This document shows positions 21,666 to 59,318 of a DNA stretch of 64,000 bases, in pieces. The notes beneath the pieces are model-generated. The model was given only the letters and a program-made list of their open reading frames with translations, had not been told where the DNA came from and ran no database searches. The position numbers and the translations under genes were made by a program. The stretch's first letter is position 1. Each line of letters opens with the position of its first letter. Source of the stretch: Candidatus Rokuibacteriota bacterium (GTDB lineage Bacteria; Methylomirabilota; Methylomirabilia; Rokubacteriales; CSP1-6). The stretch is from the NCBI GenBank assembly GCA_003221695.1, contig QHSX01000058.1:326-64325 (forward strand), read 5' to 3'.

Positions 21666-22013
21666 ATGGCCAGGGTGGACTGGAGCTATCACCGCAAGGG
21701 CTGAAACTCCTGCGCCCGTGCGCAAGAGTTTCTTGCGAAGAGGAGGGTCAGCGTCGTCGAGCAGGTGGACACGCGGAAGTCGCCGATCACCGGCGAGGCC
21801 GCGCTCGTCGTGACCAAGGACGTCGACGAGGTCTGGGTCGCTAGGGGCAAGAAGGCCGTCCACGTGGACCTCACGGCGTCCCGGCCGCCCATGGCCGAGC
21901 TGCTCCAGCTTCTCCTGGGGCCGACCGGAGGGCTCCGGGCGCCGACGCTTCGGGTCGGCCGGACGCTGCTCGTCGGGTTCAATGCGGAGGCGTACGCGAA
22001 AATCTTGAAGTAG
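21666..22013 (+). CDS. ArsC/Spx-family thioredoxin-fold protein with an in-frame TGA at codon 13 (candidate selenoprotein, U-x-x-C)
   Basis: ATG(21666) MARVDWSYHRKG-TGA-NSCARAQEFLAKRRVSVVEQVD...GPTGGLRAPTLRVGRTLLVGFNAEAY. The TGA aligns with the first Cys of the family CxxC. Hairpin CGCAAGA-GTT-TCTTGCG lies about 16 nt downstream. Confidence 0.5.
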
Positions 22014-30493: not shown

Positions 30494-30597
30494 GTTTCGT
30501 CACCGTGACGGTGTTCTCAGCAGATTTTTCTTGACCGAATCGAAGCGGGGCGCTCAACATCGAGTCACATGCTGACCACTTGCGGTGAGTCTCGCCT

Positions 30598-33500
30598 ATG
30601 AGCCCTCTGGAATTTCCGGCGCGGATCCCACCGCACAACCTCGACGCTGAACGCGCGGTCCTTGGCGCCATTCTCCTGGAAGGCCGCGAGACGCTCCCGC
30701 GCGTGATCGAGGTGCTCCGGCCGTCCGATTTCTACACGGAGGCCCACCGGGCGGCGTACGGGACGATGCTGCGCCTCTTCGACCGCGGCGAGCCCGTCGA
30801 TCTCATCACGCTCAGCGAGGAGCTCCGCCGTACGGATCAGCTCGAGTTCGTCGGGGGGGCCGCCGCGCTCGCGCTCCTCGTGGAGCAGGCCTCGATCGCG
30901 GCCCACCTCATCGCCTACGCCCAGATCGTCCGCGACATGGCGGTGCTGCGCGAGCTGATCCAGACGTCCACGCAGATCATCGGCCAGGCCTTCGAGGCGA
31001 AGGAGGATGTCCAGGCCCTGGTCGACGACGCCGAACGCCGGATCTTCAGTCTGGCCGAGCGGCGGCTCGAGGGCAGCGCGCTTCCGATCGGCAAGATTCT
31101 CAAGAACACCTTCGAGTACATCGAGCGGCTCTACGAGCGGAAGGAGCATGTCACCGGCATCGCGACGGGGTTCGAGAAGCTCGACCTCGAGACCTCGGGG
31201 CTCCAGCCCTCGGACTTCATCATCATCGCGGGTCGGCCGAGCATGGGGAAGGCCCAGCCCCTCGACGCCCAGGTCAAGACGGTCGCGGGGTGGAAGCGGA
31301 TGGGCGATCTGAAGCTGGGCGACGAGCTCGCGTCCGTGGACGGCCGGCGCTCTCTGGTGAGCGGGATCTTCCCCCAGGGTCCTGAACAGGTCTACCGCGT
31401 CACCTTCTCCGATGGCCGTTCCACGGAGGCGAGCGCCCAACACCTCTGGCGCGTCCATTACCGTAATTGGCGTGAGCCCCGGACGCTCTCCAGCGAGCGC
31501 GTGGCGCAGATGTTGCGGGTCAAGCGATACCGGCACCGTCTGTGGATCGACGTGCCGTCCGGCGTCCACGGTCACGCCGAGGCGCTTCCTATCGATCCGT
31601 GGTTGCTGGGCGCGCTGCTCGGTGACGGGAAGCTTTCGGGGACCAGTCTGATCTTTTCGACGTCCGATGCCGCGATGCTGGAGCAATTTCTCGAGCGGAC
31701 ACGAGAGGGCTTCGCCCTGCGCGCCGTCGGCGGCTACGACTGGCGTATCGTCCAGGCGACGGGCGCGCATCGCCGGGGTACCCAGGGCGTCTCGCCGAAC
31801 CGACTGATGGAAGCGCTCCGCGGGCTCGGCCTCTGGGGAATCCGTAGCGATGAGAAGTTCATCCCAGACATCTACCTGAATGCCTCACGCGAAGCGCGTC
31901 TCGATGTCGTGCGCGGCCTCATGGATACCGACGGCTGGGTCGAGCGCTGGGGGAGCGCGCGGTTCTGCTCCACGAGCGAGCGCCTGGCGCGGAACGTGGC
32001 TGAACTGGTGCGCTCCCTTGGCGGCTGGTGTTCGGTTCGAGGCAGGCGGACAACGTACAGTTATCGCGGAGAGAAGAAGGCCGGCAGACGGGCCTTCGTG
32101 TGCAACGTTCACTACGCGGACCCCCAAGCGATCTTCGCGCCGTCGCGGAAGCGCGACAGAGTGTTGGCGGCGCCGCGGCGACGGTGGCGGCCCGTGTTCG
32201 TCTCGGTCGAGCCTACGCGAGTGACGGACACCCAGTGCATCGCGGTCACCCATCCGTCCCGGCTCTACGTCACCGATGACTACGTGGTGACTCACAACAC
32301 GGCGTTCGCGCTCAACGTCGCGCAGCACGTGGGCATCCATCTGCGCGGCCGGGTACTGGTGCTGAGCCTCGAGATGTCCGCCCAGCAGATCGTCCAGCGG
32401 ATGCTTTGCGCCGAGGCCAAGGTGGACTCGCAGGCGGTGCGCACCGGCTACCTCTCCTCCTCGGACTGGCACCGCCTGACCGCGGCAGCCGGCCGTCTCA
32501 GCGAGGCGCAGATCTTCATCGACGACAGCCCCGGGCTCAGCGTGCTCGAGGCGCGGGCCAAGGCGCGACGGATGAAGGCCGAGCACGGGCTCGAGCTCAT
32601 GATCATCGATTACCTCCAGCTCATGCGGGGGCGCGCGGCGATGGAGAGCCGCCAGCAGGAGATTTCGGAGATCTCCCGGTCGCTCAAGGCGCTCGCGAAG
32701 GAGCTGAACGTGCCGGTGGTCGCCCTCTCCCAGCTCTCGCGCGCGGTGGAGTCGCGCGCCACCCGCGACTTCCGGCCGCAGCTCTCGGACCTCAGAGAAT
32801 GCGTGACCGGCGACACCCTGGTCGTCCTCGCTGATGGGCGACGAATCCAGATCTGCGATCTCGTGGACGGCGCGCCCGAAGTCCTCGCGATGTCTCCGGC
32901 CGGCAAGATCATCATGACCAAGAGCGAACGGATCTGGCGGGTGGGGATACGGCCAGTCTTCGAGATCCGGCTCGCGAGCGGGCGGATCATCCGGGCGACC
33001 GGGCAGCATCGCCTCTTCTCCGCGCAGGGGTGGATGACGGTGAACGAGCTTTCGGCCGGTGATCGCCTTGCGATCGCGAGGAGGCTGCCGGAACCATTAT
33101 TCCCTGACTGCTGGCCGGATCGGCGCGTCGTACTCCTCGGGCAGTTGATCGGGGACGGCAGCTATCTGATTCATCAGCCGTTGCGATACACGACCAGTTC
33201 AGAGGACAACAGCCGCGTTGTCGCTGAGGCGGCAAGCGAGGAGTTCGGGTGTCGGGTCAGCCGCCATGCCGGCCGTGATGGCTGGCACCAGCTCGTCATC
33301 AGTGGGAACGGGAATCGCTGGTGCCACCGGGGCGTTGGCGGATGGCTTCGGCAGCTGGGGATCTTCGGTCAACGGTCCTATCAGAAGCGGATTCCCGAGG
33401 CGGCCTTTCGGCTCTCGACCCGACAGGTCGCCCTGCTCCTGCGCCATCTGTGGGCGACGGACGGAACCATCGCCCCACGCAGAGGCGGGAAGGGGAGCCA

Positions 33501-34278
33501 CGGGGTCTCATATGGCACCAACAGTCCAGGATTGGCGAGAGACGTGGCGGCGTTACTGCTGCGACTCGGCATCGTGGCGAGGATCTCCTCTGCCCGAAAG
33601 GGCAGCTACCGCCCCTCCTTCTTCGTCACGGTCTCGGGCGCCGCGGACGAGCGGCGGTTTCTCGAGACGGTTGGCGCGTTTGGTCCCCGAGGACCCCAGG
33701 CGCAGCGCCTGAAGGCCTTGCTGAAGGACTGCAAGGCCAACACCAACGTCGACACGCTCCCCGTTCAAGATTTCGAGCGGGTGAAGGAATTAATGCGCGT
33801 GCGGGGCATCTCCCAGCGACGGATGACCGTGATGCGGGGAACAGCGTACGGGGGAAGTTCCCATTTCCGATTTGCGCCGTCACGGGCCGTGTTGCAGCAG
33901 TACGCCGAGATCCTCGATGACGACGGGCTTCGCGCGCGCGCAGCCAGCGATCTGTTCTGGGATCGCATCATTGCCATCGAGCCCTCCGGGGAGGAGGAGG
34001 TCTTCGATCTCACCGTGCCCGGCCCGGCGTCCTGGCTCGCCGACGGAATCGTCAGCCACAACTCCGGGGCGTTGGAGCAGGACGCCGACCTGATCCTGTT
34101 CCTCTATCGCCAGTCGCAGTACAAGGAGGACCTCCCGCCGGACGAGGCCAACGTCGCCGACGTCATCATCGGCAAGCAGCGCAACGGCCCCGTCGGCACG
34201 GTCAAGGTCGTGTTCCTGCCCCAGTACGCGCGGTTCGAGAACGTCGCGGAGTCCCACCGGCAGCCGCAGCCGTTTTAG
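30598..34278 (+). CDS. dnaB: Replicative DNA helicase DnaB interrupted by two inteins (extein about 456 aa)
   Basis: Extein N-terminal domain ...Walker A GRPSMGK|[intein1]|TAFALNVAQ ... RPQLSDLRE|[intein2]|SGALEQDADLILFLYRQ. Confidence 0.95.
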   Translation: MSPLEFPARIPPHNLDAERAVLGAILLEGRETLPRVIEVLRPSDFYTEAHRAAYGTMLRLFDRGEPVDLITLSEELRRTDQLEFVGGAAALALLVEQASIAAHLIAYAQIVRDMAVLRELIQTSTQIIGQAFEAKEDVQALVDDAERRIFSLAERRLEGSALPIGKILKNTFEYIERLYERKEHVTGIATGFEKLDLETSGLQPSDFIIIAGRPSMGKAQPLDAQVKTVAGWKRMGDLKLGDELASVDGRRSLVSGIFPQGPEQVYRVTFSDGRSTEASAQHLWRVHYRNWREPRTLSSERVAQMLRVKRYRHRLWIDVPSGVHGHAEALPIDPWLLGALLGDGKLSGTSLIFSTSDAAMLEQFLERTREGFALRAVGGYDWRIVQATGAHRRGTQGVSPNRLMEALRGLGLWGIRSDEKFIPDIYLNASREARLDVVRGLMDTDGWVERWGSARFCSTSERLARNVAELVRSLGGWCSVRGRRTTYSYRGEKKAGRRAFVCNVHYADPQAIFAPSRKRDRVLAAPRRRWRPVFVSVEPTRVTDTQCIAVTHPSRLYVTDDYVVTHNTAFALNVAQHVGIHLRGRVLVLSLEMSAQQIVQRMLCAEAKVDSQAVRTGYLSSSDWHRLTAAAGRLSEAQIFIDDSPGLSVLEARAKARRMKAEHGLELMIIDYLQLMRGRAAMESRQQEISEISRSLKALAKELNVPVVALSQLSRAVESRATRDFRPQLSDLRECVTGDTLVVLADGRRIQICDLVDGAPEVLAMSPAGKIIMTKSERIWRVGIRPVFEIRLASGRIIRATGQHRLFSAQGWMTVNELSAGDRLAIARRLPEPLFPDCWPDRRVVLLGQLIGDGSYLIHQPLRYTTSSEDNSRVVAEAASEEFGCRVSRHAGRDGWHQLVISGNGNRWCHRGVGGWLRQLGIFGQRSYQKRIPEAAFRLSTRQVALLLRHLWATDGTIAPRRGGKGSHGVSYGTNSPGLARDVAALLLRLGIVARISSARKGSYRPSFFVTVSGAADERRFLETVGAFGPRGPQAQRLKALLKDCKANTNVDTLPVQDFERVKELMRVRGISQRRMTVMRGTAYGGSSHFRFAPSRAVLQQYAEILDDDGLRARAASDLFWDRIIAIEPSGEEEVFDLTVPGPASWLADGIVSHNSGALEQDADLILFLYRQSQYKEDLPPDEANVADVIIGKQRNGPVGTVKVVFLPQYARFENVAESHRQPQPF
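31252..32298 (+). mobile_element. Intein 1 (349 aa) in the DnaB P-loop, with a LAGLIDADG homing endonuclease; class-3-like (Ala1, block-F Cys)
   Basis: Begins AQPLDAQ. Block B ...TEASAQHLW. LAGLIDADG motifs LLGALLGDGK and VVRGLMDTDGWV. Block F TDTQCIAVT. Ends VVTHN, followed by extein Thr. Confidence 0.8.
32800..34062 (+). mobile_element. Intein 2 (421 aa), canonical class 1 (Cys1...HN/Ser+1) with a LAGLIDADG homing endonuclease
   Basis: Begins CVTGDTLVVLADG. LAGLIDADG motifs LLGQLIGDGS and LLRHLWATDGT. Ends LADGIVSHN|S. Confidence 0.85.
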
Positions 34279-38870: not shown

Positions 38871-39377
38871 ATGGCCGGTGACGTGCCGTTCCTCGAGCGT
38901 CTCGCCCAGCTGCCGCCCGTGCCCGCTGCCGAGGCGCCAGCCCTCGTCGAGCGACTCGTCACGCCGCAGGGCGATCCCGTGGTGGGCCCGCTCTTCAGCG
39001 TCGACGACGAGGGCGACCTCGTCGTCAACCCGCTCGTCCCCGCCGTGCTCAAGTCGTTGCAGGACAGGGCCGACCTCACGTGCTACGGGGCACTGCTCGA
39101 GGGGTTGACGGGGATCTGGAACGCTGCGGTGCGCGCGGCCGTCGTGGCGCGGCTGCGCGCGTCGGGCCTGCCGCCCGACGATCTGCTGCTACGGCTCGGT
39201 GCGCTGTCGCCGACGCTCGGGTTCGCGACGGAGACGCCGGAGTGGGCCCGCGAGTGGCTCGCGGACCCGTTCACCCAGGACGCGCTGCTCGTCCAGCAGT
39301 GCATGGTTCGCGTACTCCTGGCGCTCCGCACGATGGCCGAGGCGCGGGCGGCCGAGCTGACGACGAAGCTCGGCTGA
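38871..39377 (+). CDS. Hypothetical protein
   Basis: 168-aa ORF with good coding-frame composition and no recognisable motif. Confidence 0.4.
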   Translation: MAGDVPFLERLAQLPPVPAAEAPALVERLVTPQGDPVVGPLFSVDDEGDLVVNPLVPAVLKSLQDRADLTCYGALLEGLTGIWNAAVRAAVVARLRASGLPPDDLLLRLGALSPTLGFATETPEWAREWLADPFTQDALLVQQCMVRVLLALRTMAEARAAELTTKLG

Positions 39378-39394
39378 CGATTCGGGGAGGGACC

Positions 39395-39742
39395 ATGCAC
39401 ATCCACGAGCGGAACCGGGAGAAGAAGCGGCTCGGCACGCTGATGCTCAAGTCGCCGATGAAGGTCTACGCGGCGTTCGGCGAGCTGGGCAAGAAGGTCT
39501 ACGCCGACGGGGCGCTGTCGAAGAAGCACAAGGAGTTGACGGCCCTGGCCGTGGCGGTGTCGCAGAACTGCTTCGACTGAATCGATCATCGCGTCGAGGA
39601 GGTCCTCGACCAGGGGGCGACGGATGCCGAAATCGCGGAGACGCTGGACATCGGGCTGCTGATGGGCGGCACGCTCGCCGCCAAGTCCGTCCGCCACGCG
39701 TTCTCGGTGCTCGAGCAGCTCAAGGCAGCCAAGGGGGACTGA
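39395..39742 (+). CDS. Carboxymuconolactone decarboxylase/AhpD-family protein with an in-frame TGA (candidate selenoprotein, C-x-x-U-x-x-H)
   Basis: SD GGGGAGGG then ATG(39395). ...HKELTALAVAVSQNCFD-TGA(39578)-IDHRVEEVLDQGATDAEIAETLDIGLLMGGTLAA, ending at TGA 39740. The AhpD core motif has Sec in place of the second Cys. Hairpin GTCGAGG-AGGT-CCTCGAC starts 13 nt after the TGA. Confidence 0.55.
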
Positions 39743-39744
39743 GC

Positions 39745-40140
39745 ATGGCGACGATTCCGGAGAACTACCGCGACCTCTTCACGAAGAAGACGTTTGCCCA
39801 CCTGGCGACCGTCGGCGCCAACAACACGCCGCAGGTCACGCCGGTCTGGTGCGACTGGGATGGTACCTACGTGAGGATCAACACCGCGCGCGGGCGGGTG
39901 AAGGACCGGAACCTCAGGAAGAACCCGAGGGTCGCCCTCTCGATCCAGGACCCGGACAACCCCTACCGGTACATCCAGGTCCGTGGGCGCGTCGCCGAGA
40001 TGACGGAGCAGGGGGCCGACGCGCACATCGATGCGCTCGCCAAGAAGTATCTCGGGAAGGACAAGTACCCGTACCGCCGCCCCGACGAGGTCCGCGTGAC
40101 CGTGAAGATCCTCCCCGAGAAGGTTCAGACGCTGGGATGA
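39745..40140 (+). CDS. Pyridoxamine 5'-phosphate oxidase-family (PPOX class, possibly F420/FMN-binding) protein
   Basis: [51 protein letters not shown]. Confidence 0.7.
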
Positions 40141-57326: not shown

Positions 57327-58276
57327 CCGGGGCGAGGCGCGCCGGGTGAGCGGCGTGGCTCGAGGTAGGTGTCGAGGGAGAGCTCGGGCGTGAAGGTCTC
57401 GAGCCCGACGCTCTCGGGCGCGCGCCCGGCGAAGGCCGCGCGCGGCGCCAGCCCGACGAGCTCGCTCCGGCTCACCCCTGTGCGGTGCCGGCGTGCCTCG
57501 TCCACGACGCAATCGAAGACGAGTGGGATCGGCGTCCGCCGGTAGTCGAGGAGGTTCAGCGAGACTTGCGCGATCCCACGGCTCGCGAGCCGCACGCCCA
57601 TCGCCTGGACCGCCGGGAGGCCGCCCGACGACTCGCGGACCGCGCGCGCGATCTCGCGTGCGATGGTCGCGTCGTCCGTGGCCAACCACACGTTGAAGGC
57701 CACGAGCACGTCGCGGGCGCCGACGAGCACGGCGCCCGAGCGCGCGTCGAACCGCGGCGGCCCGTCGTCGGGCGCGCCGTCCAGCGCGGCCAGGCGCGCG
57801 GGCAGTCCCTCGTACTCGCCGCGGCGGAGTGACCGCGGCGTCTCGCGTCCCGGACGCGTGGCGGCCCGGCCGTAGTAGTAGACCGGGAGCGCGTGGCGCT
57901 CGGCGATCGCGCGCCCCGCGCGCCGCGCCAGGGCGACGGTCTGCTCGAGGGTGACGCCGGCGAGCGGGACGAACGGGAGCACGTCGAGGGCGCCGACGCG
58001 CGGATGGATCCCGCGGTGCTGGCGCATGTCGATCAGCGCGACGACCCGCGCGGCCAGGGCGAGCGCGGCGGCCTCGACGGCCTCGGGCGCGCCCAGGAAC
58101 GTGACGACCGAGCGATGGTGGTCGGGGTCGGCGTGAACGTTCGCGAGCGTGACGCCGGGGACGGCGCGGACGGTCGCCGCGAGCAGGTCGACGCGGGCGC
58201 GGTCGCGGCCCTCGCTCACGTTCGGGACGCACTCGACGACGGCTGCGGGCGGTCCCGCGGCGGCAGCGCCCGGCAT
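57323..58276 (-). CDS. Glutamate formimidoyltransferase (FtcD N-domain-like)
   Basis: VECVPNVSEGRDRARVDLLAATVRAVPGVTLANVHADPDHHRSVVTF. Confidence 0.75.
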   Translation of the reverse strand: MPGAAAAGPPAAVVECVPNVSEGRDRARVDLLAATVRAVPGVTLANVHADPDHHRSVVTFLGAPEAVEAAALALAARVVALIDMRQHRGIHPRVGALDVLPFVPLAGVTLEQTVALARRAGRAIAERHALPVYYYGRAATRPGRETPRSLRRGEYEGLPARLAALDGAPDDGPPRFDARSGAVLVGARDVLVAFNVWLATDDATIAREIARAVRESSGGLPAVQAMGVRLASRGIAQVSLNLLDYRRTPIPLVFDCVVDEARRHRTGVSRSELVGLAPRAAFAGRAPESVGLETFTPELSLDTYLEPRRSPGAPRPG

Positions 58277-58298
58277 GCGGTGTATACTACTCGGCGGC

Positions 58299-59318
58299 AT
58301 GCAGTTCCTGCCAATCGGCAAGCTCGGTGCCGAGACGCTGCAGGCGATCTTCGACAAGCACCCGCTCCGGGATCCCCGCGTCGTCGTCGGTCCGAAAGTC
58401 GGTGAAGACGCGGCGGTCATCGACGTGGGCGACCGCTATCTCGTGGCGACGACGGATCCGATCACCTTCGCCACCGACGAGATCGGCTGGTACGCGCTCC
58501 ACGTCAACGCCAACGACATCGCCGTGCGCGGCGCCCGCCCGCGCTGGTTCCTCGCGACGCTCCTGCTGCCCCCCGGCGCCACCACCGAGGCGGGTGTCGG
58601 GTCGCTCTTCGAGCAGCTCCACGCCGCATGCGACGAGCTCGACGTGGCGCTCGTCGGCGGCCACACGGAGATCACGCACGGCCTCGACCGCCCGATCGTC
58701 GTCGGCGCGATGCTCGGCGAGGTCGCGAAGGACCGGCTCGTGACGACGGGGGGCGCGCGCGTCGGCGACGCGGTGGTGCTCACCAAGGGCGTGCCGCTCG
58801 AGGGCGCGGCGATCATCGCGCGCGAGAAGGAGGCCGAGCTCCGCGCGCGCGGGGTGGCGCCGGCGACCATCCGGAGAGCCAGGAACTTCCTCAGGGCGCC
58901 CGGGCTCAGCGTGCTCCCAGAGGTCGAGATCGCGTGCGAGCTGGCCCCGGTCCACGCCATGCACGATCCCACGGAGGGCGGGGTGGCGACGGCGCTCGTC
59001 GAGCTGGCCAACGCCGCGGGCGTCGGGCTCCGGATCGACCGGGACCGGATCATGGTGCTGCCCGAGGGCCGGGCGCTCTGCGAGGCGTTTGGTCTCGATC
59101 CGCTCGGCACGATCGCGTCGGGGGCGCTCCTCATGACCCTCGCGCCCGGCGACGCGTCCACCGTCATCCACGCGCTCGCGCGCGAGGACATCGACGGTCA
59201 CTTCATCGGCCAGGTCGTGGAGCGCGCCGAGGGCCTCACGCTGGTGAGCGGCAGCCGGCGCGAGCCGCTGACCGCCTTCGCCCAGGACGAGATCTCGAAG
59301 CTCTTCACGGGAGTCTGA
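58299..59318 (+). CDS. AIR-synthase-related (PurM-fold; HypE/ThiL-like) protein
   Basis: DAAVIDVGDRYLVATTDPITFATDEIGWYALHVNANDIAVRGARP. No SelD GGCGCK-type Cys/Sec, and no HypE C-terminal PRIC. Confidence 0.7.
   Translation: MQFLPIGKLGAETLQAIFDKHPLRDPRVVVGPKVGEDAAVIDVGDRYLVATTDPITFATDEIGWYALHVNANDIAVRGARPRWFLATLLLPPGATTEAGVGSLFEQLHAACDELDVALVGGHTEITHGLDRPIVVGAMLGEVAKDRLVTTGGARVGDAVVLTKGVPLEGAAIIAREKEAELRARGVAPATIRRARNFLRAPGLSVLPEVEIACELAPVHAMHDPTEGGVATALVELANAAGVGLRIDRDRIMVLPEGRALCEAFGLDPLGTIASGALLMTLAPGDASTVIHALAREDIDGHFIGQVVERAEGLTLVSGSRREPLTAFAQDEISKLFTGV

Follow-up and report, generated by a model that had tools for sequence, protein, structure and literature searches.

A probable CxxU-type AhpD-like selenoprotein gene with a phylum-wide in-frame UGA in Methylomirabilota

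Introduction

The stretch of DNA analysed here, 64 kb of contig QHSX01000058.1 from a Candidatus Rokuibacteriota bacterium (hereafter the window; G+C content 70 %), carries at 39395..39742 on the forward strand a reading frame related to AhpD and to the carboxymuconolactone decarboxylase (CMD) family. The frame is interrupted by a TGA codon at 39578–39580, and the locus therefore raises a simple question: does this TGA end a short protein, or is it translated? We consider it very probable that 39395–39742 is one gene, encoding a small AhpD-like/CMD thiol-selenol oxidoreductase, and that the UGA at 39578–39580 is translated as selenocysteine (Sec). The same reading had been put forward in an original prediction made from the nucleotide sequence.

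Results

A single reading frame continues through the TGA codon

The gene starts at an ATG codon at 39395, 3 nt downstream of a Shine–Dalgarno-like sequence that can be read directly from the DNA (GGGGAGGG, 39384..39391, +). The N-terminus, MH(I/V)HERN, is kept in orthologues. Translation through the in-frame TGA gives a coding sequence (CDS) of 115 residues at 39395..39742 (+), in which the putative Sec is residue 62 (U62) and the terminal TGA lies at 39740–39742. Past the in-frame TGA, the same frame runs on as IDHRVEEVLDQGATDAEIAETL... up to this terminal codon, and the read-through product has the motif C59-F-D-U62-I-D-H65. The Shine–Dalgarno sequence, the ATG, the in-frame TGA, the continued frame, the terminal TGA and a hairpin downstream of the in-frame codon are all present in the sequence as originally described.

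The original prediction had also anticipated that annotation pipelines would mistake the gene for a truncated one, and public gene calls do truncate it. The NCBI and JGI calls consist of a 63 aa ‘carboxymuconolactone decarboxylase family protein’ and a 44 aa orphan open reading frame (ORF) without a family match. Minus-strand ORFs that overlap the region are of the spurious type, and long spurious ORFs in other frames and strands are to be expected given the G+C content of the window. A refined scan of the 64 kb for in-frame TGA codons found only the AhpD-like gene and an ArsC-family gene, described below, to have a coding-flanked TGA within a redox motif. Three further in-frame TGA junctions were rejected, as each was just a pair of neighbouring genes sharing one frame.

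The in-frame TGA is conserved across Methylomirabilota

The comparative set consisted of 80 loci from a one-genome-per-species scan together with the window, making 81 sequences; codon counts given as a fraction of 79 cover 79 orthologues. Almost all of the 80 loci belong to Methylomirabilota, in both the Rokubacteria (Rokuibacteriota) and the NC10/Methylomirabilis groups. They are 63–93 % identical to the query, and in each of them both halves of the protein were matched in one frame. The codon corresponding to 39578..39580 (+) was TGA in 81 of the 81 sequences, and a Cys codon was found in none (0/81). As nucleotide identity falls to 63 %, this conservation does not stem from recent common ancestry.

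The sequence on the far side of the TGA behaves like coding sequence. In the 81 sequences, the stretch that begins 40 codons ahead of the TGA and ends 44 codons past it is without gaps, and the 50–60 codons that follow the TGA keep the frame, with most of their variation at third positions. Mean column entropy at the first, second and third codon positions was 0.38/0.33/0.81 on the 5′ side of the TGA and 0.33/0.22/0.88 on its 3′ side, a pattern typical of sequence that is translated and held under purifying selection.

Of the 85 relatives obtained in a protein search, several bear the name Candidatus Rokubacteria, and most were 63–68 aa long and ended ...NCFD, ...NCWE or ...NCFP. Since these relatives end exactly at the same point, the gene callers must have halted at one shared codon. 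The terminal stop of the AhpD-like gene, by comparison, was TGA in 56 genomes, TAG in 16 and TAA in 9 (81 genomes). TGA is thus an ordinary terminator here, and what sets the internal TGA apart must be its local context.

Loci of the typical Rokubacteria type were also seen in three records (L064, L011 and L040) labelled as Candidatus Nitrosocosmicus, an archaeon, and Candidatus Binatia. These records are probably mis-binned.

The TGA occupies the position of the second Cys of the AhpD redox motif

With the stop replaced by Cys, the translated product matched PF02627 (Pfam CMD) with a score of 58.9 bits (cutoff 23); the match extends over residues 24–103 and thus crosses the TGA. It also scored narrowly above the cutoff of TIGR00778, the NCBIfam model of the AhpD core domain (29.9 against 27.8). 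The closest relatives in the PDB were TM1620 of Thermotoga (1vke, 1p8c), 7y4r and Pseudomonas aeruginosa AhpD (5dik), with E-values from 7e-13 to 4e-10. The Pfam, NCBIfam and PDB matches agree with the AhpD/CMD identity first assigned to the protein. From homology to the PDB entries we infer an AhpD fold; an AlphaFold2 model, built from a 6-sequence alignment, had a mean predicted local distance difference test score (pLDDT) of 60.5, too low to serve for comparing folds.

The CxxC motif of 1vke, 1p8c, 7y4r and 5dik aligns residue by residue with C59/U62, and its second Cys corresponds to U62; alignment to solved homologues thus bears out the claim that the TGA stands in for the second Cys of the motif. 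The codon of Cys59, the first and putatively resolving residue of the C-x-x-U motif, lies at 39569..39571 (+) and is TGC or TGT in 79/79 orthologues. Glu47, encoded at 39533..39535 (+) and 12 residues before C59, is present in 78 of the 79 orthologues and aligns with the conserved Glu in the K-E-L segment of AhpD/CMD structures (KTKEL or KTREL in 1vke, 7y4r and 5dik). We take Glu47 to be a possible proton-relay residue, the counterpart of Glu118 in Mycobacterium tuberculosis AhpD.

The residues that follow the TGA distinguish this protein from the canonical family. His65 and Arg66, encoded at 39587..39592 (+), stand at i+3 and i+4 from the Sec position and are each invariant (79/79), giving the motif CxxUxxH-R. 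The arrangement CxxCxxxH was found in the PDB relatives and in 81 of 145 representative homologues and CxxCxxHH in 17, while CxxCxxH-R was found in none; at least 98 of the 145 combine CxxC with a nearby His. The C-x-x-U-x-x-H motif reported in the original prediction is therefore present, but it does not follow the canonical AhpD/CMD pattern, CxxCxxxH with His at i+4, because the His stands one residue earlier and an Arg takes the i+4 position.

Three much longer proteins, P0086 (1161 aa), P0089 (852 aa) and P0115 (1355 aa), each had 6–7 CMD/AhpD-like stretches matched, and CxxCxxxH motifs recur in P0086 and P0089 at least. Their architecture resembles a tandem array of AhpD domains.

A bSECIS-type hairpin downstream of the UGA is under apparent selection

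Within the CDS, a bacterial selenocysteine insertion sequence (bSECIS)-type hairpin at 39593..39610 (+) spans codons V67-E-E-V-L-D72. The hairpin, GTCGAGG/AGGT/CCTCGAC, begins at the 13th nucleotide past the TGA and has its 5′ arm at 39593–39599, an AGGU apical loop at 39600–39603 and its 3′ arm at 39604–39610. We compared it separately with each criterion of the bSECIS model, as quoted in a 2026 review (PMC13188914). The model has a loop of 3–9 nt, an upper stem of 4–16 bp and a minimum free energy (MFE) of ≤ −7.5 kcal/mol (PMC13188914); the observed values were 4 nt, 7 bp and −11.8 kcal/mol, the last for the minimal 24 nt hairpin (39590–39613; z = −2.5). The spacing from UGA to loop, 16–37 nt in the model (PMC13188914), is 19 nt here (39581–39599), and because the region is without gaps it is 19 nt in all 81 sequences. 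The model also places one G or more within the first two nucleotides of the loop, as a rule with G or U after it (PMC13188914); the AGGU loop has G at position 2. The two G bases of the loop and its U are invariant (81/81), and the A is present in 80 of the 81 sequences.

The argument for the hairpin is carried by comparative data, not by fold energy. Across the 81 sequences, 99.3 % of the cells were paired, compared to 35–58 % when the 3′ arm was slid by 1–3 columns, and 0 of 500 shuffles matched the observed pairing or covariation score. The stem peptide V67-E-E-V-L-D72 is near-invariant and could by itself yield an inverted repeat, and the test was therefore made at synonymous sites. Codons +6 to +9 relative to the UGA were GAG (79/79), GAG (78/79), GTC (78/79) and CTC (79/79); elsewhere in the gene, conserved codons for Leu and Val divide ~46 : 30 between G- and C-ending forms. 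Val+8 and Leu+9 had third-position entropies of 0.10 and 0.00, compared with a mean of 1.14 and a minimum of 0.72 for 21 other conserved four-fold sites.

One stem pair has changed in a compensatory manner. Pair 39595/39608, formed by the third base of Val+5 and the first base of codon +10, is C–G in 61 sequences, G–C in 18 and U–A in 2, and is thus Watson–Crick in 81/81. A change on one side of the pair is silent, while a change on the other alters the amino acid (D/H/L/N), and a neighbour-joining tree made with the hairpin masked requires at least three independent changes. The frozen synonymous sites and the compensatory pair indicate that the hairpin is under selection, and they reinforce the resemblance to bSECIS elements that had been noted at the outset and that agrees with the published model.

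Rare variants at the Sec position

A small number of relatives depart from the UGA. Two metagenome contigs, L081 (1302–1646) and L082 (1501–1743), have a CGA (Arg) codon in place of TGA, a single T-to-C change, with the hairpin intact; in L082 the normal 5′ end of the gene is missing. One protein entry (P0002) has Leu at the Sec position, and one source-less protein entry has Cys there and a garbled C-terminus. A real 24 nt in-frame deletion is found in a small group related to L072 (L085, 215–544; also P0006, P0007 and P0087). The deletion takes out exactly F-D-U-I-D-H-R-V, leaving ...SQNC-EEVL..., so that the Sec codon and the His are lost together with three bases at the start of the 5′ hairpin arm. 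In this group, Sec appears to have been lost through deletion and not through replacement by Cys. Set against the 81 of 81 species representatives with TGA, the rare variants look like errors or decaying copies.

A second candidate selenoprotein gene and the search for Sec machinery

The ArsC-like gene, which the original prediction had named as a companion selenoprotein candidate, lies at 21666–22013 (+), with its TGA at 21702–21704: MARVDWSYHRKG-U-NSCARAQEFL.... Its identification is upheld by a match to NF041106, ‘ArsC family (seleno)protein’, at 130.9 bits (cutoff 85). A hairpin right after the UGA folds at −27.7 kcal/mol (z = −2.6); its loop, CCGU, is 11 nt past the UGA and falls outside the 16–37 nt spacing of bSECIS elements.

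We searched for Sec machinery by several routes. ARAGORN detected no tRNA-Sec in the window, in L001–L060 or in 1.17 Mb of related sequence, a Pfam survey of ~45 window genes found neither selA nor selB, and tblastn with approximate Escherichia coli SelD and SelB queries gave one weak match only, to an AIRS-domain gene at 58137–59318. From the literature, we found no published reports on Sec machinery in Rokubacteria or Methylomirabilis specifically. Sec use in the phylum as a whole is on record: a Methylomirabilota metagenome-assembled genome is reported to have 63 predicted selenoprotein genes (PMC13188914), and Sec-type Group 4 hydrogenases are present in Methylomirabilota (PMC13582414). 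Among Sec-type genomes of nine phyla, ~90 % have three or more of the four selABCD genes (PMC13582414). Together with the ArsC-family gene, these reports give indirect support to the original prediction, by which Sec machinery would be encoded elsewhere in the genome.

The AIRS gene at 58137–59318 (+) was rejected as SelD, scoring 83 against the selD cutoff of 125. The AIR-synthase-related protein begins at MQFLPIGK and fits no curated family (HypE, 117 against 251.6; ThiL, 90 against 184; SelD, 83 against 125). An N-terminal Sec in this protein was likewise rejected, as the upstream segment with the in-frame TGA is the shadow of a minus-strand formiminotransferase gene.

Evidence against Sec, and other explanations of the UGA

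Several results weigh against translation of the UGA as Sec. Neither the 64 kb window nor 1.17 Mb of flanks from related loci was found to contain selA, selB, selD or tRNA-Sec. No full-length Cys-form relative above ~45 % identity came out of an exhaustive search of 1.84 billion representatives; the best full-length Cys homologues are at most ~45 % identical, and the Sec/Cys pair can thus be stated at the family level only. The comparison with Cys orthologues that the original prediction called for was therefore successful in part, with Cys aligned at the family level and no orthologue-level Cys form found. The His is shifted by one residue relative to characterized AhpD, and the catalytic details may differ accordingly. 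The hairpin evidence also has its weak points. As a single sequence, the 66 nt region 3′ of the UGA has no fold advantage over shuffled versions (z = +0.56). Of the seven stem pairs, four are invariant and so carry no information when taken alone; the covariation comes from one pair, plus one with a G–U wobble. No SECIS family was matched in Rfam, either at the gathering threshold on the window or at E-values up to 10 on 39300–39800, and the relaxed results contained only chance miRNA, snoRNA and sRNA matches.

The explanation closest to Sec insertion is that the UGA is recoded through the SECIS/SelB route, and that Cys is inserted by a tRNA-ReC-type tRNA with a UCA anticodon. Insertion of Cys is equally compatible with the conserved UGA, the SECIS hairpin and the Cys-equivalent position, and several phyla have tRNA-ReC-like tRNAs able to read a SECIS-dependent UGA as Cys (PMC13582414). 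However, the groups for which tRNA-ReC is reported are Armatimonadota, Desulfobacterota and JAPLJL01, and Methylomirabilota is not among them (PMC13582414); neither the window nor the 1.17 Mb of flanks yielded a tRNA of this type. The same outcome could be had more cheaply with an ordinary TGC or TGT codon, yet 0 of the 81 genomes use one, which argues that the UGA supplies something beyond Cys. We regard the insertion of Cys as very unlikely.

In some systems, read-through can be favoured by a stable structure that lies immediately 3′ of the stop codon. The hairpin could in this way promote programmed, SelB-independent decoding of the UGA by a near-cognate tRNA (e.g. for Trp, Cys or Arg), and the rare contigs with a CGA (Arg) codon and an intact hairpin are compatible with such a mechanism. 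Those CGA variants, however, are single contigs, one of which has a damaged 5′ end. The site is that of a nucleophilic redox residue, where only Sec or Cys keeps the chemistry, the hairpin geometry and loop sequence fit the SelB-type bSECIS model, and Methylomirabilota are independently reported as Sec-using (PMC13188914, PMC13582414). SelB-independent read-through is, in our judgement, extremely unlikely.

That the UGA is a genuine stop, so that the gene is split, truncated to a 61-residue product with or without a separate C-terminal fragment, or a pseudogene, is what the public databases imply: the NCBI, JGI and ENA calls halt at the TGA to give a 63 aa product and a separate 44 aa ORF, and TGA is a normal terminator in these genomes. 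The relatives speak against it. The two halves lie in one frame without an indel in 81/81, the downstream half has a coding-type substitution pattern, and no conserved start codon or ribosome-binding site exists 3′ of the TGA. The codon coincides exactly with the catalytic Cys, midway through a single helical domain, and is TGA in 81/81, never TAA or TAG, whereas terminal stops use all three. The two-ORF or pseudogene arrangement in close relatives, which the original prediction had named as its own possible refutation, was looked for and rejected on this continuity of frame, and a genuine stop is almost certainly the wrong explanation.

Genome-wide reassignment of TGA to a sense codon (as in code 4 or 25) has nothing in its favour beyond the in-frame TGA itself and is scarcely credible, since TGA terminates the AhpD-like gene in 56 of 81 genomes, which shows that the code is not reassigned, as well as most coding-like ORFs of the window, and just two coding-flanked in-frame TGAs with a redox-motif context occur in 64 kb.

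Genomic context of the AhpD-like gene

The putative selenoprotein gene is flanked by two co-directional genes that are probable operon partners. Upstream, a gene for a 168 aa protein (38871..39377, +) ends 17 nt before the AhpD-like start codon; the protein has no Pfam or NCBIfam match, and the gene adjoins the AhpD-like gene in 65 of 80 related loci. Downstream, a gene for an F420-dependent PPOX-class oxidoreductase (39745..40140, +) starts 2 nt past the AhpD-like stop. Its product matches TIGR03618 (124.7 bits against a cutoff of 79) and Pfam PNPOx_N (68.8 bits), and it adjoins the AhpD-like gene in 57/80 loci, with a stop/start overlap of 4 nt in L082. This arrangement suggests that the 168 aa and PPOX-class genes form a functional module with the selenoprotein gene. 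No ahpC or peroxiredoxin gene adjoins the AhpD-like gene.

The wider co-directional order is HhH-GPD glycosylase, a small ORF, MFS transporter, 168 aa protein, AhpD-U, F420-PPOX, ABC-F ATPase and HNH protein. It is kept in most Rokubacteria loci, and the intergenic gaps on either side of the putative selenoprotein gene are tiny. The NC10/Methylomirabilis loci have different neighbours, and the TGA and hairpin are still present. In two of these (L066 and L067), a gene for a small CDGSH-type iron-sulfur protein lies ~180–450 nt past the TGA and replaces the F420-PPOX gene.

The window as a whole is a housekeeping chromosomal region, with RNase P RNA, rpoD, dnaG, mutS2, pth, prs and groEL, as well as an intein-bearing dnaB, mreBC, PBP2, RNase G and a copper ATPase. 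The intein of the DnaB replicative helicase (30589–34278, +) has a LAGLIDADG homing-endonuclease domain.

Discussion

Judged from its sequence and that of its relatives, the locus most probably represents a genuine AhpD/CMD CxxU-type selenoprotein gene, which extends a known family in a phylum already flagged as Sec-rich; at the UGA itself, Sec would actually be inserted. What is specific to this clade is the phylum-wide UGA without a close Cys form, the CxxUxxH-R site and the conserved F420-enzyme neighbour. It is also specific to the clade that no curated selenoprotein model captures the gene and that the SECIS is laid over an invariant peptide.

By analogy with the established bacterial Sec pathway, the hairpin with its AGGU loop would recruit SelB-GTP-Sec-tRNA(Sec) at the UGA, and Sec would be inserted there in place of chain termination, while the terminal UGA of the gene, which lacks such a hairpin, would lead to normal termination. 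In the protein, homology to AhpD would place Sec62 at the start of a helix as the equivalent of the second Cys of CxxC, the nucleophilic residue in AhpD. Sec62 could then attack an oxidized substrate, either a peroxide or the sulfenate or disulfide of a partner protein, and Cys59 would resolve the intermediate to form a selenenyl-sulfide, with Glu47 and His65 acting as a proton relay. The physiological reductant may be linked to the F420-dependent PPOX-class neighbour.

A bolder proposal is that the clade forms a separate, obligately Sec-dependent AhpD subfamily with a rewired site (CxxUxxH-R), apparently fixed throughout Methylomirabilota, and that it serves as the redox part of an undescribed module together with the translationally coupled F420-PPOX enzyme and the conserved 168 aa protein. 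We consider this speculative and rather unlikely. If it were true, the module would be an F420H2-driven seleno-peroxidase or a disulfide/selenenylsulfide reductase, and not an AhpC-linked AhpD.

The finding leaves current concepts unchanged and is not conceptually surprising; its use lies in annotation and in the study of SECIS evolution. The gene is divided in two in all public calls examined, and a dedicated model would correct its annotation in at least 80 species-level genomes of a phylum that is abundant in soil and groundwater. The presence of two candidate selenoprotein genes in one 64 kb housekeeping region fits the very large selenoproteomes reported for Methylomirabilota, and the set of 81 genomes offers an exceptionally clear case for studying a SECIS that overlaps an invariant peptide. 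The shifted His and the F420-enzyme neighbour may, in addition, hint at the partner and electron donor of the AhpD-like selenoprotein family.

Comparison with known systems

As the original prediction stated, AhpD-like proteins are a recognized selenoprotein family: CxxU AhpD-like and CMD-domain selenoprotein families have been established since 2005 (PMC1088965, PMC2398784, PMC1794560). The CMD-domain or ‘AhpD-like 2’ CxxU family was described by Zhang, Fomenko & Gladyshev (2005) and Zhang & Gladyshev (2008) (PMC1088965, PMC2398784) and is included in a later review (PMC13188914). Compared by family definition, the present protein shares with it PF02627, a CxxU motif with Sec in the second position, a small single-domain protein and a bSECIS directly 3′ of the UGA. 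It differs in that the clade is confined to Methylomirabilota, in having CxxUxxH-R and not CxxCxxxH, and in having no Cys form above ~45 % identity. The CMD-domain CxxU family was more abundant in non-marine samples in the 2008 survey (PMC2398784), which fits the soil and groundwater habitat of Methylomirabilota.

With the AhpD proteins of M. tuberculosis and P. aeruginosa and with TM1620, the protein shares the AhpD/CMD helical domain and a Glu placed 12 residues ahead of the first Cys. It is the second Cys of M. tuberculosis AhpD that attacks AhpC, and Sec62 would sit where that Cys is found. Unlike the present protein, to which they are ~30–40 % identical, AhpD (5dik) and TM1620 have Cys in place of Sec and His at i+4 in place of i+3. 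The genomic association with ahpC of the M. tuberculosis-type AhpC/AhpD system is also absent at this locus.

Four NCBIfam families of the AhpD fold with CxxU share weak local similarity with the protein at the active site: TIGR04169 (arsenosugar-associated peroxidase-like; 41.8 against a cutoff of 120), NF041047 (GSU3128 ‘distant AhpD homolog’; 32.9 against 110), NF041537 (ArsM/AhpD; 36.9 against 510) and NF045649 (MduS; 23 against 380). As the scores are far below all four cutoffs, the protein belongs to none of these families, and automated annotation accordingly fails to rescue the Sec codon.

Finally, the hairpin resembles the E. coli fdhF-type SECIS and the bSECISearch consensus in its location within the CDS and 3′ of the UGA, its small loop, its spacing within 16–37 nt, and a G followed by G/U in the first loop positions. 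Unlike the fdhF-type SECIS, it has a perfect, short 7 bp stem with no bulged U, and this stem is tied to the invariant V-E-E-V-L peptide, so that constraints on the RNA and on the protein overlap.

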